64,000 nt of DNA from IMG/VR virus record IMGVR_UViG_3300044796_000401; one strand, written 5' to 3'. This DNA is from a virus (lineage: Duplodnaviria > Caudoviricetes). The notes under the pieces are model-generated. The model was not told the DNA's origin, ran no database searches, and saw only the letters and a list, made by a program, of their open reading frames with translations. This document shows, piece after piece, positions 3,031-58,384 of this stretch. Position 1 is the stretch's first letter. The number at the start of each line of letters is the position of its first letter. Both the position numbers and the translations under genes were made by a program.

Positions 3031-4545
3031 ATGGCATACAGCGTTAAGGTTCTCGATCACTTTCAGTACCCCAGAAACGTAGGAAGTCTCGACAAGACTT
3101 CAGTAGATGTTGGCACTGGCTTGGTGGGAGCCCCCGAGTGTTTTTCCGGTTCCACCCTCATCGCCACGGCGGACGGGTCCAATCAAAGGGCTTTGGCGGA
3201 ATTATACGCTGAGGGCCAGGACATTCCCGTTTGGTCCTTTAACATAGCCAAAAAACAGTTCGAAATCAATATGGGGAGAGCGGTGTGCACGGGTGAGAAG
3301 CCTGTGGATTCGGTTACATTAGACGACGGCTCAACCCTAGAAGTTACGGCAGACCACGAATTTCTAACTCGTCCGGACTACAAATATATTGCCAACGGCG
3401 AAATCAAAGACGAGTCCATACGACCTTTCAAGCGTTATGTATCGAAGCGGGGGTATTGGCGCATACGAGACTCCAAAGAAAACGATCAATATCGCTCCAT
3501 ATTCAAGTTTTTTACGGGGGCCACTTCTATGCGGGGGTTCAACATCCACCACAAGAATCTAGACAAGCGTAACGACTCCCCCAATAATCTGAAGTTGTTA
3601 ACCATCGGGGAACGCATAAAAGAACATCGTCCTTCGCCGAAGAAGTCCACCGGCCGTCAGATTTTTGACAGGCTTAATTTGGGTGACAACGACATTGTCC
3701 GCATTTCCAAGCTGCTCAAGGATAAAACACGACAAGAAGTGGCTGATGAACTCGGAGTTTTTGTTGACGAGTTTTATGTTGTCTTGCGTGTACTGGGGCT
3801 GGGAAGAGTCAGGAGAATTAACACCCCAGTGGAGTGCTGCGAATTAAGCAGCATTAGAATGAAGAAAGACAATCCGTATCACAAGTTCACCTCAGAGCAA
3901 AAACAGATATTCGCCACCCACGAAGGAAGCTCCAACGGGCGTTGGAAAAACTCCGGCAATGAGGCGCTATTACAAGCGGCAAAGAAAATTTTAGACGAAA
4001 ACGGCAAATTCACCGCAGCCCTTTGGCGAGAAAAGGCCCACAGTTTGGGACTTCCTCAAGACATCAAATCTCGTTTCAAATCGTTAAACGAGTTTCACAG
4101 GCAGGCTGTAGAATTCAACCACAAAATTAAAAATCGTGAAGTTTTGGGAGTCGTTCCAACCTTTACCCTACAGGTGGAAGGCAACAACAACTATGTTGTG
4201 ATTACGAAGATGACTAAAAACTCCCAATGTGGTATTGTTGTGAGGAACTGCGGCGACGTGATGAAGCTCCAGATCAAAGTCAACAAGGAAACGGGTGTCA
4301 TCGAAGAGGCCAAGTTCAAATGCTTTGGGTGTGGATCGGCCATCGCCAGCTCTTCCCTCGCCACCGAATGGGTCAAAGGCCGCACTGTGGATGAGGCCCT
4401 CACGATCAAGAACACCGATATCGTGCGCGAGCTAAACTTGCCTCCGGTGAAAATCCATTGTTCTGTCCTTGCACAGGATGCGATTGCCGCCGCCGTCACC
4501 GACTGGAAGCGGAAACAAGAAAGTTTCCTGAAAGACGGTATTTGA
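3031..4545 (+). CDS. iscU: Fe-S scaffold IscU/NifU-N interrupted by an intein
   Basis: Exteins MAYSVKVLDHF..PRNVGSLD...GLVGAPE | CGDVMKLQIKV...GCGSAIASSS...LPPVKIHCSVLA reconstitute a ~134-aa IscU. Confidence 0.93.
   Translation: MAYSVKVLDHFQYPRNVGSLDKTSVDVGTGLVGAPECFSGSTLIATADGSNQRALAELYAEGQDIPVWSFNIAKKQFEINMGRAVCTGEKPVDSVTLDDGSTLEVTADHEFLTRPDYKYIANGEIKDESIRPFKRYVSKRGYWRIRDSKENDQYRSIFKFFTGATSMRGFNIHHKNLDKRNDSPNNLKLLTIGERIKEHRPSPKKSTGRQIFDRLNLGDNDIVRISKLLKDKTRQEVADELGVFVDEFYVVLRVLGLGRVRRINTPVECCELSSIRMKKDNPYHKFTSEQKQIFATHEGSSNGRWKNSGNEALLQAAKKILDENGKFTAALWREKAHSLGLPQDIKSRFKSLNEFHRQAVEFNHKIKNREVLGVVPTFTLQVEGNNNYVVITKMTKNSQCGIVVRNCGDVMKLQIKVNKETGVIEEAKFKCFGCGSAIASSSLATEWVKGRTVDEALTIKNTDIVRELNLPPVKIHCSVLAQDAIAAAVTDWKRKQESFLKDGI
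3139..4248 (+). mobile_element. Intein (370 aa) with an HNH-type homing endonuclease in iscU
   Basis: Starts CFSGSTLIATADG, ends ...GIVVRN followed by Cys+1; internal IHHKNLDKRNDSPNNL HNH motif. Confidence 0.88.
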
Positions 4546-47082: not shown

Positions 47083-47447
47083 ATCGGGGCTTGTTTGCCG
47101 GGGGCTGGCCGGAGCCAGCCCCCGATTTTATCCCCCGCCGGAAGTCCGTCTTTTTTCCTCCTCCGAGTATTATCCGGTATGTTCCAGCTTCCCGAATTGC
47201 CGCCCTGCCCCTACCACGCCGCCGAGCCCCCCGAGGAGCTTGCCGCCCACAAATGCTATGATTACCAGCCCAAGCGGTTCCACGAACTGATGGACGAGAC
47301 TCGGGAAGAGACGTTTTCGCAAGTGCCCGAGATCGTGCCCAAGATCATCGAGACGCCGGAGGGGGAAGAATGAAACCGTTTCCGCCCTCCCCCACGTCTA
47401 ACAACAAGATTGGTGAATACGGGTTTACTAGATAGCGAGGAACACAT

Positions 47448-48020
47448 ATGAAATACTTTATCGGTCTATTGGTTCTTTTCTTCAGTTTTGTTGGTCTTTC
47501 CGCGGCCCAGCATCCGGGCGGAGGGTCCCACGGCGGCGGTGGCGGCGGCTCCCACGGGGGCGTTAGCGGAAGCCATGGCGGCGGAAGCAGCCACGGGAGC
47601 GCCAACAAAGGCTCCTCCCACAAGGGCGGCAGTCGCGGAGCGGTCTCGCATGGCAATCAGGGACGCAATCAAGGACATCAATCGCGAGTAACCGACCGAG
47701 GACATTTCAACGGCGACCAAGGGCGTCACACAAGCGCCAACGACCGCAGCCACTTCGACGGGCGTCATTTCGACGCTGGGTATCGCGGTCGCTATTTCGG
47801 ACGCAGCAACCGTTTCCGCTTCGGGCCTCGCGTGCGGTATGGCACCGGCGGTTGGCGTTTCTGGTATGGAAATTTTTGGTTCAACATGTATGACCCGTGG
47901 TATAGTGACTGGGGATGGGGCGATGACATGTACATCGACTACTCTGAGGGTGATGATTGCTACTTCCTGTACAACTACCGCCATCCCGGATTCAGAATCC
48001 GCCTCGGCGTAGTTTTTTAG
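47448..48020 (+). CDS. Secreted Gly/His-rich protein with an aromatic C-terminus
   Basis: Signal peptide, low-complexity linker, W/Y/F-rich C-terminal domain. Confidence 0.65.
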   Translation: MKYFIGLLVLFFSFVGLSAAQHPGGGSHGGGGGGSHGGVSGSHGGGSSHGSANKGSSHKGGSRGAVSHGNQGRNQGHQSRVTDRGHFNGDQGRHTSANDRSHFDGRHFDAGYRGRYFGRSNRFRFGPRVRYGTGGWRFWYGNFWFNMYDPWYSDWGWGDDMYIDYSEGDDCYFLYNYRHPGFRIRLGVVF

Positions 48021-48233
48021 GGTTTTATCGATAGGAACATTATACCGCTACCCACATCCCAACGAACCTGCCCGTTTCATTTATGTTGGGCAGGGAGCGA
48101 ACCGGGATAAAAGACACCGTTTGGGACGTTCATCTTGTTCATCTTTTGGTCGGCGCTTCAAAAACACTTTCCCAACGTTGAACCGCTTAGCGAGCGCAAT
48201 CCCAGACTTTAGTCTGGGTAAGCGAGTGACTTT

Positions 48234-48371
48234 ATGATACAAGCACAACTCAAGCTTCGTCTCAACAAGAAGCAAGAAAACACTCTGACGGGATGGTTGT
48301 GGAACCTAACTGGTGTCTGGAACTGGGCTATCCGCAAGATAGAATTAGACGCAAAGGCGGGTGCGTCGTGA
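48234..48371 (+). pseudogene. tnpB: TnpB N-terminal stub (45 aa)
   Basis: MIQAQLKLRLNKKQENTL..W......VWNWAI matches the TnpB N-terminal helix pattern. Confidence 0.7.
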
Positions 48372-48868
48372 TTATTTGTAAAGCGTGTTTAGTCCCTAAA
48401 GACTCTCGTGAGTTCAGCAAAGACTCTCGCAAACGTAATGGATGCCAGAGTTATTGCAAGCCTTGTGCCGCCTCTAAAATTGCTCGGGCGAGGGCGGCAA
48501 ACCCCGAGAAAGATAAAGCCACACGCAAACGGTGGGAAGCGACACACCCCCAGCGCCACTTGAAACATTCGGTAGGAATCACTCTGTCCGAGAAGCGGAG
48601 TCAATTTAAGAAGCAAGGCAGTAAGTGTGGTGCATGCGGCAGCCTTGAACATAATCACCCGTATCTGCAAGGCGAGAATGGGTGGTGCGCCGACCACGAC
48701 CACGAGACCAGACAGTTCCGTGGCGTGATTTGCTGGCCTTGCAATATGACGCTCGGATTTGCTCACGATTCCGTAGAGCGATTACTGGGCTTGCTGGATT
48801 ATCTGGCGGCTCGTAACACGCTATTTGCCGGGGCAGGATATGCCCACGAGGAGGCTTGCTATGCGTGA
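48368..48868 (+). CDS. Endonuclease VII-family nuclease ending in a TnpB-like C-terminal tail
   Basis: CKAC...CKPC Zn motif; QGSKCGAC...DHDH.T.QFRGVICWPCN..LG...DS..RL...LDYL; ends AARNTLFAGAGYAHE. Confidence 0.8.
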   Translation: MIICKACLVPKDSREFSKDSRKRNGCQSYCKPCAASKIARARAANPEKDKATRKRWEATHPQRHLKHSVGITLSEKRSQFKKQGSKCGACGSLEHNHPYLQGENGWCADHDHETRQFRGVICWPCNMTLGFAHDSVERLLGLLDYLAARNTLFAGAGYAHEEACYA

Positions 48869-49209
48869 GCCTGTCAGGAATCCCAGAGTTTACTCTGGGA
48901 GTATCAAGCAAAAGCGCGTGCTTGTTACAATGGAGGCCGCACTCAGGGGCGTAAAAACGCTGAAAGCGGATTCCTCAAGATTATTCTTGCAAAGGGCCGA
49001 CACAGCCGTTGGCACATTGCCCGAAATAAGCCGAATCTCCGTTGCTCTCTTTGTGTTGACGAGGAATTAACTAAAGCGGCGGCTCATAACTGAACTCAAT
49101 TTTGCCTGCCGCGCTGAAAAGGCCGAACCTTTGCGCGAAATCTAGCGGTTGTCTCGCGTCGCAGGCATAATTTCCTCGACGTTCAATCCCCATCTGGTAT
49201 TATCTGGAT

Positions 49210-49557
49210 ATGGACGAAATCAAGCAAATCAGCATCGTCAACTCCGAGTATGGCAAGCCCTTCAATCTCTACGTTCGTTCAGACCGCCTCAAGGCGTTCT
49301 ACCAGTTCATGATCGATGAGCGCCATCCCGAGCGCAAATCCGACCCCATGCCCGGTGCGAGTTGGGCCGTGGTGCTGGGGCTTGATGCGATCTTTGCCCG
49401 CCGCCCCAAGAAATTTCCCGTCGATGACATCCTGCTTTGGCTGGCCAGCGGCATCATTCCACACCCGGATTTCCCGCGCGTGACCAAGACCGAGGTCGAG
49501 TACGCCCTTGAGCGTTTCTCCGCGATGTACCCTCCGGACGCCTCGGAGGACGCATGA
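49210..49557 (+). CDS. Hypothetical protein
   Basis: Leaderless start 6 nt after TATTAT. Confidence 0.6.
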   Translation: MDEIKQISIVNSEYGKPFNLYVRSDRLKAFYQFMIDERHPERKSDPMPGASWAVVLGLDAIFARRPKKFPVDDILLWLASGIIPHPDFPRVTKTEVEYALERFSAMYPPDASEDA

Positions 49558-50090
49558 ACTTCCACGACGAGATAAGCGCGATCCGCAGCAATTGGACCGG
49601 CGGGCGGATCACGAAACGCACCGCCATCATCGAGTTCGAGGCGCTGCTGCGGGAGCATCGCATGCTCCCGAAGGACCACCTGCTCAATCCGGACCTTTCC
49701 GACGAAAGCTTCCTGTCTTTGCTCAACCATTCGTTCGCCCTGACGGAGGGGTCCCTCGCGTGGCTGGAGCAGCAGACCGAGACGTTCTTCGCCGAGCATC
49801 CCATCACGGAGTCCCGGTGCCCCGCATGCAACCGGTGGGTCGCCGGAGGGCTGTACAAGCAGGTCGGCATAGAGGAAGAGGACGACGGGGACCAGATTGC
49901 TCCGCGGGAAATCTTCGACCTGCCCTCGCTCCGGTGCGCGGCCTGCGCCCAGGCCTACTTGGACGAGCGCGTGTTCAAGACCAAGAGTCCGGGCATCCCC
50001 GACACGGGCGAGGCTCCGATGAGTAAAGAAGAGGCCTCGTGGTTTGCTTCGCTGGAAAAACAGATGAATGAGCCCAACGGCAAGAAGTGA
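49554..50090 (+). CDS. Hypothetical protein with two CxxC pairs
   Basis: CPAC...CAAC; ATGA overlap. Confidence 0.6.
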   Translation: MNFHDEISAIRSNWTGGRITKRTAIIEFEALLREHRMLPKDHLLNPDLSDESFLSLLNHSFALTEGSLAWLEQQTETFFAEHPITESRCPACNRWVAGGLYKQVGIEEEDDGDQIAPREIFDLPSLRCAACAQAYLDERVFKTKSPGIPDTGEAPMSKEEASWFASLEKQMNEPNGKK

Positions 50091-50113
50091 GGAAAACCTC
50101 AGTATTGACCAGT

Positions 50114-50320
50114 ATGAAGCGAGCCACCGCGACGGCGAAAGTCTGGTTGGACGGAAAGCCCGTGGTCTTGAGCGGCACGTTGCAGCCGCTCCAAGACGGC
50201 ATCCAGCTATTCTGCTGCAAGGGCAGGTGGTGGCTCTACTACGATTTCGACGACAACACGGGCTCCTTCGAGTCCAAGAAGGAAGCCAAGGAATGGCTGC
50301 TGAATAATGGCGGACGGTAA
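50114..50320 (+). CDS. Small hypothetical protein
   Basis: Aromatic-rich 68-aa ORF. Confidence 0.5.
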   Translation: MKRATATAKVWLDGKPVVLSGTLQPLQDGIQLFCCKGRWWLYYDFDDNTGSFESKKEAKEWLLNNGGR

Positions 50321-50726
50321 GTTACAGGCCAAAATGGGGCTTAATCCTAAGAACGCGTTACGAAAGGAACTTCGACCGTATGGCGGCTGCAAACGGTGGA
50401 TGTACCTATTTCTTTGTGCAGAATGCAAAAAAGAACTTTGGTATGAACGACGTATTGTCTTCAAGCAACAAGGGAAATGCCCAAGATGCGCCGCGAAAAT
50501 TAACGCCGTTCAAGCCCACGAATCTGTCACAAAGCGCCCCTTTGAGGCCATCTATAACAGATTAGTCAAATCCGCTTCGGACCGTAATTTGTCGTGCGCA
50601 CTGACTTACGAATCCTTTTTACGGTTTACAAACACCCATAAGTGCCACTACCGCGGGTCATCCATTGTTTGGTCAAAACACACAGGTTCAGTAGGACAGG
50701 AACGAGATTTTTTGGTGGAGGACTAG
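50307..50726 (+). pseudogene. Truncated HNH-like endonuclease
   Basis: CAEC...CPRC, RPFE..YN.L...A..R.L...LTYE.F...CHY; lacks the HNH core seen in paralogue 13848-14337. Confidence 0.5.
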
Positions 50727-57274: not shown

Positions 57275-58384
57275 ATGGACATCAAACTCAAGGAAATCAC
57301 CGTCCGCGAACTGACGGACGGCTATAAGGACAACGAGGAAGCCGGGGTCATCGGCTACAAAGGTCGGCTGGATATCCGCCCGCCGTACCAGAGGGAGTTC
57401 ATCTACAAGGACAAACAGCGAAACGCGGTCATCGATACCATCGCCAACGACTTCCCGCTGAACGTCATGTACTGGGCCGTTCGGAAAAACGGCGATTTCG
57501 AGATCATTGACGGCCAGCAGCGCACCGTTTCGATCTGCCAGTTTGTCACTGGGGATTTTGCCCTTGCCGTTTTCGGCAGCAAAGAGCAGCGGTTCTTCCA
57601 CAATTTGCAGGAAGACGAGAAAGAGAAAATCCTGAACTACAAGTTGATGGTGTACTGGTGCAGCGGCACGGATAGCGAGAGGCTGGGGTGGTTCAGGACC
57701 ATCAACATCGCCGGAGAGAAACTGATGGAGCAGGAACTCCGCAACGCCGTGTATGCCGGTCCTTGGGTCTCGGACGCCAAGCACTATTTCAGCAAGACCG
57801 GGTGCCCCGCATGGGGATTAGGCAGCGACTACCTTACGGGCTCGCCTATCCGGCAAGACTTCCTTGAAACAGCCATCGACTGGTTCGGCGAAAGCAAAGG
57901 CGATAGCATCGAAGATTACATGGCCAAGCAGCAGCACGAGCCAAACGCCCACGAGTTGTGGCTGTATTTCCAAGCCGCCATCAACTGGGTCACGGTCACT
58001 TTCCCCAAGCATCGCAAGGAAATGAAGGGCGTCGCTTGGGGAAAGTTGTACAACACGCACAAAGACGACAAGATCGATGCTGCCAAGCTTGAGGAAAAAA
58101 TCGCCCGTCTCATGGGCGATGACGATGTCACAAACAAAAAGGGCATCTATTCCTACGTTTTGGATGGAGAAGAACGAAGCCTGAATATCCGAGCCTTCAC
58201 CGACAACCAGAAACGAGAAGCCTACGAACGGCAGAAAGGCATCTGCCCCCGGTGCGAAAAGCAGTTTGAGCTTGAAGACATGCAAGGGGACCATATCACC
58301 CCGTGGCACCAAGGCGGAAAGACAACGGCTGACAACTGTCAGATGCTCTGCGCGGATGATAACCGGCGCAAATCTGGGAAATAG
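57275..58384 (+). CDS. DUF262 (GmrSD-like) plus HNH endonuclease
   Basis: IRPPYQREFIY, EIIDGQQR, F..IN.AG..L..QELRNA; C-terminal CPRC...DHITPW.QGGKT..DNCQMLC..DNR.K. Confidence 0.88.
   Translation: MDIKLKEITVRELTDGYKDNEEAGVIGYKGRLDIRPPYQREFIYKDKQRNAVIDTIANDFPLNVMYWAVRKNGDFEIIDGQQRTVSICQFVTGDFALAVFGSKEQRFFHNLQEDEKEKILNYKLMVYWCSGTDSERLGWFRTINIAGEKLMEQELRNAVYAGPWVSDAKHYFSKTGCPAWGLGSDYLTGSPIRQDFLETAIDWFGESKGDSIEDYMAKQQHEPNAHELWLYFQAAINWVTVTFPKHRKEMKGVAWGKLYNTHKDDKIDAAKLEEKIARLMGDDDVTNKKGIYSYVLDGEERSLNIRAFTDNQKREAYERQKGICPRCEKQFELEDMQGDHITPWHQGGKTTADNCQMLCADDNRRKSGK

Follow-up and report, generated by a model that had tools for sequence, protein, structure and literature searches.

The 64,000-nt stretch of phage DNA analysed here (IMG/VR record IMGVR_UViG_3300044796_000401, Caudoviricetes; referred to throughout as the window, with all coordinates given as window positions) comes from a large phage and contains a non-autonomous element of the IS200/IS605 family in which the core of the transposon gene tnpB is replaced by the gene of a homing-type nuclease. 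Cas12 descends from TnpB elements, whose persistence is ascribed to the role of their RNA-guided nuclease as a homing enzyme that can be programmed. In the window element and its relatives a protein-only homing enzyme has repeatedly come to occupy TnpB's seat, with the transposon ends and part of the guide-RNA region kept. The nuclease lineage looks like one clade and the transposon shells in which it sits are polyphyletic, which points to tnpB as habitat and probable target of the nuclease. The proposal developed below, to which we give about an even chance of being right, is that of a homing-endonuclease lineage that lives in tnpB genes, probably targets them and spreads by homing into them.

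An endonuclease VII gene inside a tnpB shell

The shell keeps the ribosome-binding region and first 41 codons of tnpB together with its last 20 codons, and an endonuclease VII/HNH gene has replaced codons ~42-329 (Table 1). Homology to the full-length TnpB element L013 runs at the DNA level from the left end to about 48356 and is found again from 48806 to the end of the element. At the protein level, residues 1-41 and ~330-349 of a P0001-type TnpB remain, and the D-E-D catalytic residues of the RuvC domain are gone together with the zinc finger. In the relatives L020-L029, L075 and L081 the C-terminus of tnpA lies directly upstream of tnpB.

The initial annotation had described a 45-codon TnpB stub coupled through GTGA to an endonuclease VII open reading frame (ORF) that reads in frame into a TnpB-like tail, and each of these parts holds up. 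The N-termini of 332 database proteins match the stub at 80-93% identity; the majority of those listed are TnpB proteins of ~350 amino acids with PF01385 and PF07282 domains, and the Pfam family HTH_OrfB_IS605 matches the stub weakly (E=0.022). Its TGA overlaps the GTG of the nuclease at 48368; an alternative start, the ATG at 48293, would give a nuclease ORF of 191 codons. The ORF matches PF02945 (Endonuclease_7) with E=1.6e-14 and 54 bits against a cut-off of 23.6, and the PHROG family 'endonuclease VII' with E=4e-27. Its CxxC..DHDH..CxxCN zinc and catalytic motifs align with the Hpy99I motif and show little or no variation among five relatives. From residue 1 onwards the ORF is 33-37% identical to free-standing 'endonuclease VII' genes of Klebsiella, Pectobacterium and Synechococcus phages, which marks it as a complete nuclease of the mobile type found in phages.

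The tail is identical to the C-terminus of P0001, the closest full-length TnpB, at 17 of 20 residues, and the same fusion of nuclease and tail is carried by P0121-P0127 and P0157. A relationship between the CxxC region of the nuclease and the TnpB zinc finger was considered and dropped, the similarity consisting of the shared tail and generic Cys pairs. Searches of phage records with the region (blastn) and with the stub (tblastn) gave no match, and a promoter and terminator scan gave no more matches than chance. At the left junction (48348-48367) a 6-bp hairpin, whose loop contains the purine-rich putative ribosome-binding site AAGGCGGG, lies directly before the GTG and did not stand above chance in a scan. 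The RNA contigs of one metatranscriptome cover 47832-48203 and 48757-49521 and not the nuclease ORF, and such contigs cannot show expression or RNA ends.

Both end hairpins are intact, as first annotated. The left hairpin reads CCCAGAC-TTT-AGTCTGGG, and the pattern that describes it matches only twice in the window, at the two ends of the element, against 0.11 matches expected by chance. The hairpins and their adjoining bases are common to the shell and the full-length elements L002, L007, L009, L010 and L013. In >10 loci the right end stops at ...GGGAG(C/T)ATCAA and similarity between the flanks is lost with the very next base, in agreement with the TCAA at which the annotation had placed this end. 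On the left, all 16 of the 16 genuine ends have TGAA 13-17 nt upstream of the GCGCAATCC motif, the sequence upstream of TGAA is unrelated between copies, and in an Acidoferrales genome with three copies of one element the differences reach right up to TGAAC. The element therefore starts at 48183 (or 48184) and not at 48191 as initially annotated, and an empty site would read TGAA joined to GCAAAAG in place of the TTAG junction that had been put forward.

Insertion follows the pattern of this transposon family, namely 3' of a fixed short target, with no duplication and with a fixed tetranucleotide at the right end. The tetranucleotides before the hairpins are CAAT on the left and GAAT on the right, and those at the cleavage sites are TGAA and TCAA; under what we take to be the IS608 rules for pairing of guide and cleavage site, the G-to-C difference between the guides matches the C-to-G difference between the sites. 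A mini-element of ~75 nt, consisting of half a left end and a complete right end that stops at TCAA, is present at L004:1060-1128 and has no ORF.

Part of the guide-RNA region is kept in the 102-nt right-end module. Across 37 full-length elements, 96% of the cells of hairpin 1 are paired, with compensatory changes at 5 of its 6 pairs, and the end hairpin covaries as well. A long-range helix is also seen (82% paired, compensatory changes at 4 of 5 pairs), the 5' strand of which lies ~70 nt upstream of the chimera junction, in the part that has been deleted. Of the structured region the chimeras thus retain the 3' two thirds, and what is left of the omega-RNA is probably incomplete. Where the amino acids of the tail vary (Y, C or T in the loop; A-to-L and A-to-S in the stem), they do so in step with the RNA hairpin, and the tail is therefore conserved mainly as nucleic acid. 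No Rfam model matched the omega-RNA, and Rfam gave no match to a group I intron family over 47900-49300 at E up to 10.

A conserved family of nuclease-tail chimeras

A search for other elements with endonuclease VII cargo, as the initial annotation had suggested, yielded L017 and L019 with both ends together with further tailed clusters; at least eight protein clusters, ranging from <50% to 98% identity, join the nuclease lineage to a TnpB tail. Four relatives came from a word-based search: a 98% twin at the same site (L068) and, at 58-63% identity, L017, L018 and L019, each of these three with a TnpB tail. Both ends are complete (TGAA...TCAA) in L017 and L019, which lie at unrelated sites; L017 has a frameshifted stub and L019 none, and L018 has a stub of 31 codons and no left hairpin. 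An exhaustive profile search gave 80,235 endonuclease VII relatives, only nine of them at E of 1e-30 or better, and among the best of the 80,235 are the tailed representatives of 50%-level clusters P0125/L069, P0126/L070-72, P0127/L073 and P0157. The loci L069, L070-72 and L073 are phage-like, with stubs of ~35-74 codons that often overlap the start of the nuclease.

Between the nucleases of the window, L017, L018 and L019, the proportion of non-synonymous differences (pN) is 0.14-0.31 and that of synonymous differences (pS) is 0.79-0.90, which is saturated. The nuclease is therefore under purifying selection.

The twin L068 shares its right flank with the window element. Left of its hairpin (L068:1-26) the sequence differs, and the 19 nt upstream match the right-end flank of a TnpB element of the type of L003, L011 and L012, which suggests either that a right-end hairpin recombined with a left-end one or that the assembly was joined there.

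A locus search of viral and metagenome contigs gave no confirmed locus with a further endonuclease VII chimera, the long endonuclease VII relatives (324-485 amino acids) have no TnpB domains, and the short stub-bearing proteins examined proved to be truncations or frameshifts. At L130:1654-2363 an endonuclease VII that is 47% identical to that of the window ends in NAARNIL followed by a hairpin, and the stop of a preceding 44-codon ORF overlaps its start. We considered this locus as the same nuclease in the shell of a different TnpB family and set it aside, as profile comparison left the stub unsupported (probability 0.07%) and the tail barely supported (12 columns, E=0.03); tblastn against plasmids and a Pfam search gave no match, and L130 is kept as a lead only. 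A cysteine-rich ORF, 45% identical between the two loci, lies directly upstream of the chimera stub at L069:728-1123 and of a full-length tnpB at L116:939-1235, and may be an accessory gene or reflect a shared insertion neighbourhood.

Different histories of nuclease and shell

When the tails are removed and a tree is made of the nuclease cores, the nine tail-bearing nucleases cluster together, and none of 500 label shuffles was as tight. A tree in which they form one clade is better than the free tree, and the clade is not rejected by the approximately unbiased (AU) test (p=0.875). For the 102-nt right-end modules of four chimeras, in contrast, four changes are needed on the tree and a single clade is rejected (AU p=1.15e-6). 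The module of the window element is nearest to that of the full-length element L013 (92% identity) and the module of L017 to those of L007 and L101 (99%), and that of L070 is sister to the module of L081 with 99/83 support, whereas chimera modules compared with one another reach only 66-76%. The stubs, likewise, are nearest to full-length TnpBs. L017 is itself a mosaic, L006-like on its left side and L007-like on its right, and the tails of P0122, P0127 and P0018 match the TnpB C-termini of L007, L111 and L113. Given the saturated synonymous divergence of the nucleases, ends that are 92-99% identical to those of full-length elements must therefore reflect recent exchange, either by movement of the cassette into new shells or by conversion of the ends.

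The right junction always lies 0-3 residues from NAA(I/R/V)NTL, just after the RuvC-III aspartate, which is lost; in L017 the NAA is duplicated there. Left junctions are variable, at 0, ~35-45 or ~72 codons. The arms that are retained abut invariant tnpB blocks, with W29, N30, A32, K35, E37, L38 and D39 on one side and R326, D327, N329, A331, N333 and L335 on the other. Constant right and variable left junctions fit a break at the RuvC-III-coding DNA, and fit equally selection to keep the right-end module.

Other HNH-type nucleases are found in shells of the same TnpB family. In P0018 the stub leads at codon 42 into a NUMOD3 (E=3.9e-7) HNH-like protein and from there into NAAINTL, so that both junction positions are as in the endonuclease VII chimeras. 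In P0071 the cargo is an HNH nuclease (PHROG E=1e-6) with different junctions, residue 115 on one side and the zinc finger's end on the other.

Proposed homing into tnpB and competing explanations

In the model that we favour, homing into tnpB, the nuclease would cut an intact tnpB near the conserved RuvC-III-coding DNA and repair would copy the cassette in, the two most conserved tnpB blocks serving as homology arms. An RNA-guided-nuclease transposon would in this way become the carrier of a protein nuclease, which would be expressed from tnpB's own signals via a short leader ORF, and copies with both ends (the window element, L017 and L019) may still move by means of TnpA supplied in trans. 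More tentatively, and as something that we would rate below an even chance, the endonuclease VII clade and the NUMOD3-HNH and HNH cargoes may together make up a class of 'transposon-hunting' homing endonucleases that recognise the DNA of tnpB catalytic motifs and overwrite RNA-guided nucleases, with the ends of tnpB as universal homology arms.

Several observations weigh against homing into tnpB. No two related genomes were found that differ in having full-length tnpB or a chimera at one and the same site; L017 and L019 have no flank in common with any full-length element compared. A contig from the freshwater run X19 that hints at such an allelic pair diverges 12 nt before the junction and may for that reason be a k-mer chimera. 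The deletion derivative P0012/L129, which has no cargo, has the same right junction (codon 72 joined to AAINTL), and the constancy of this junction could reflect selection for a functional right-end or RNA module. The high identity of the ends could stem from gene conversion between co-resident elements, with no action of the nuclease. L015, L018, L069 and L070 have no left hairpin and are not transposable units, and neither TnpA nor TnpB is encoded in the element or in the 64-kb window.

A different explanation is that of a mini-transposon in which the endonuclease VII gene is passenger cargo, the element being moved solely by TnpA that the host or other elements provide in trans, and the nuclease having its target elsewhere, for example at a site in a competing phage. 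The mosaic shells would then result from gene conversion with co-resident full-length elements, and the constant junction would mark the minimal ends needed. We regard this as possible but rather unlikely. It is in keeping with the complete TGAA...TCAA ends of the window element, L017 and L019 at three unrelated sites, with the full tnpA-tnpB copies of the family in Acidobacteriota and other genomes and in the phage contigs L075 and L081, with the junction of the cargo-less derivative described above, with gene-less derivatives that are acted on in trans (Meers et al., PMC10055086), and with a variant in run X19 that deletes exactly the DNA from TCAA to the next TGAA, in a way that looks like TnpA chemistry. 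However, passenger cargo leaves unexplained why a single nuclease clade should without exception be fused at the RuvC-III codons in shells of different lineages and why the unrelated NUMOD3-HNH nuclease of P0018 has the same two junctions, and half of the chimeras are without a left end yet have kept stub and tail.

The initial annotation had pictured a nuclease swap in which a conventional homing nuclease took over the element or its retention role. The swap is borne out by a conserved, diversified family under purifying selection; the takeover of retention, in which the protein nuclease would replace TnpB functionally and cut the vacated donor site so that recombination restores the element, is very unlikely because the flanks differ between copies. 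Although the nuclease lies in TnpB's place and would be expressed from TnpB's signals, and TnpB's known role is retention (PMC10055086), the 4-nt TGAA is the sole flank feature common to the copies, a specific homing site would have to be far longer, and a protein-only HNH enzyme has no guide mechanism with which to follow different sites. PF02945 is named after T4 endonuclease VII, and the ORF might on that account encode a T4 gp49-like enzyme of the phage itself, a Holliday-junction resolvase or packaging enzyme, lodged in a dead transposon. This we consider most improbable, as the gene is wholly absent from the related phage L074, the N-terminal zinc-ribbon extension and the overall match are those of the free-standing phage 'EndoVII' mobile genes between core genes, and the fusion to a TnpB tail recurs in unrelated phage contexts. 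The alternative that the annotation had set against its own reading, a unique and inactive decayed chimera arising from random deletion and insertion, would suit the tiny stub and the lack of TnpA and TnpB in the window, but has next to no chance in view of a conserved family in which synonymous change is saturated and non-synonymous change low, of intact active-site motifs, and of the presence of the stretch across 13 studies of pond, peat, freshwater and viral metagenomes, in 20 sequencing runs altogether.

Relation to known systems

The closest parallel is with TnpB-only IS200/IS605 elements (IS1341-type, with ISDra2 and IS608 as models), which likewise have subterminal hairpins and insert 3' of a short target without duplication, and with which the window element shares the start and end of tnpB and an RNA-coding right end that overlaps the 3' end of the gene. 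Presumably IS608 too has a right end that stops at TCAA and GAAT before the hairpin, as the window element does. The window element differs from them in having no RuvC and zinc-finger core, with a protein-only HNH-type nuclease instead, and in retaining ~102 nt of a structured right-end RNA region that apparently spans ~150 nt. Phage-borne TnpB-only elements are known (PMC2853527), as are gene-less derivatives (PMC10055086). The latter, palindrome-associated transposable elements (PATEs) and other gene-less IS200/IS605 derivatives with omega-RNAs (PMC10055086), resemble the window element as non-autonomous internal deletions that keep their ends and would need factors in trans. Whereas a PATE has no protein-coding gene, the window element carries an ORF of 166 codons under purifying selection, an intact nuclease gene fused to a tnpB remnant, and this cargo lineage occurs in different shell lineages.

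Free-standing endonuclease VII-type genes, such as those of T7-like Klebsiella phages and of the cyanophages S-CBS2 and S-CBS4, agree with the window nuclease in fold family, length, sequence (at the identity given above) and presence/absence polymorphism. We take F-CphI of S-PM2 to be a free-standing homing endonuclease of the endonuclease VII type. Those genes lie between or beside core phage genes, whereas the window lineage is lodged in genes of transposons, with a reading frame that runs on into the final codons of these. IStrons (PMC4227781, bioRxiv 10.1101/2023.11.20.567912) also unite selfish elements of two kinds in an IS605 shell and are common in phages, but there TnpB replaces the homing endonuclease of an intron, whereas here a homing endonuclease replaces TnpB and no intron was detected. 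In IscB and Cas9, where HNH is inserted in RuvC, an HNH-type nuclease and a TnpB/IscB-type transposon gene are likewise brought together at the RuvC-III region; the window protein, in contrast, has no RuvC, bridge helix or guide-RNA-binding part, and is a replacement and not a domain insertion. Full-text searches of the literature gave no account of a homing endonuclease replacing TnpB.

Should the nuclease target tnpB, it would be a natural antagonist of OMEGA systems, a parasite of a parasite, and a source of nucleases with a predictable and conserved target, and it would help to explain the many gutted IS605 elements in phages; a 'transposon-hunting' class would comprise hyperparasites of OMEGA/IS605 elements. 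The chimeras also constitute a natural experiment on which parts of IS605 ends and omega-RNAs must be kept, and the family is common enough in phages of peat, pond and groundwater for study.

Host locus

Table 1. Positions of the element, its parts and the disrupted host gene in the window
Feature	Position	Strand	Basis or remark
Non-autonomous IS200/IS605 shell, 725 bp	48183..48907	+	boundaries set by comparing many elements
Left target and cleavage tetranucleotide TGAA	48179..48182	+	presumed transposon-associated motif (TAM) of parent TnpB
Left-end hairpin, 7-bp stem, CAAT just before	48201..48218	+	same hairpin in full-length TnpB elements L002, L009, L010, L013
Stub, 45 codons; codons 1-41 are the tnpB N-terminus	48234..48371	+	tnpB homology ends 48356-48362
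Endonuclease VII (HNH, beta-beta-alpha-metal) homing-type ORF, 166 codons from GTG	48368..48868	+	Pfam and PHROG
TnpB-derived C-terminal tail AARNTL...HEEACYA	48806..48868	+	in frame with nuclease
Right-end module, 102 nt, 3' two thirds of the omega-RNA-coding region of the family, ends TCAA	48806..48907	+	92% identical to L013
Right-end hairpin 1	48830-48847	+	covariation
Right-end hairpin 2	48852-48872	+	in module
TnpA-type (right-end) hairpin	48882-48899	+	near twin of left hairpin; within right-end module
Right cleavage tetranucleotide TCAA	48904..48907	+	flank divergence starts directly after, all loci
N-terminal remnant (~51 codons) of GIY-YIG-like free-standing gene, ends with target TGAA	48031..48182	+	homologue N-termini
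C-terminal remnant (61 codons and stop) of the same GIY-YIG-like gene	48908..49093	+	homologue GGRxQGR and RWHIxR parts
Segment of 1.08 kb (GIY-YIG-like remnant and IS shell) absent from related phage	48023..49100		L074 comparison

The element interrupts a further gene, which on the strength of its motif may be called GIY-YIG-like. The N-terminal remnant is 55-79% identical to the N-termini of 28 homologues of ~100-320 amino acids; the C-terminal half gave no match in phage records, and Pfam and PHROG gave no match for either half or for the intact homologues. A seamless joining of the two halves across the element was considered and found to be wrong, as intact homologues (P0275 and others) have a middle part that is missing in the window. 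The missing part adjoins the right end of the element, which therefore bears an extra deletion beside it, and the shell lies in the remnant of another dispensable and probably selfish gene.

The related phage contig L074 is collinear on both sides, aligning with 47395-48022 and 49102-50314 with nothing between them (L074:3041-3044), and the two phages thus show a presence/absence polymorphism in which the indel also takes in the GIY-YIG-like remnant. L074 does not provide an exact empty site, its gap of 1.08 kb being larger than the element, and the exact empty-junction pattern was unmatched in viral contigs.

Two contigs of the freshwater run X19 concern this locus. One of them, at a depth of ~5, deletes exactly 57 nt (48908-48964) between the TCAA of the element and the next TGAA downstream and, if real, looks like TnpA chemistry acting on the right end of the element. 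The other (record 14) is identical to the window over 48093-48344, which takes in the left flank, left end and stub, and then continues with the codons LDAKDKVYHG of a full-length TnpB; it may come from a full-length allele of this site, or be a k-mer chimera formed through the conserved VWNWA region.

Elsewhere in the window the large phage encodes an NAD ligase, along with further genes of selfish or defence type. A NifU-like gene (3031-4545) is split by an intein with an HNH domain, a protein combining GmrSD-N and HNH (57275-58384) lies beside an EcoRI-type methylase, and a zinc-ribbon ORF of 139 amino acids is found at 50307-50726.

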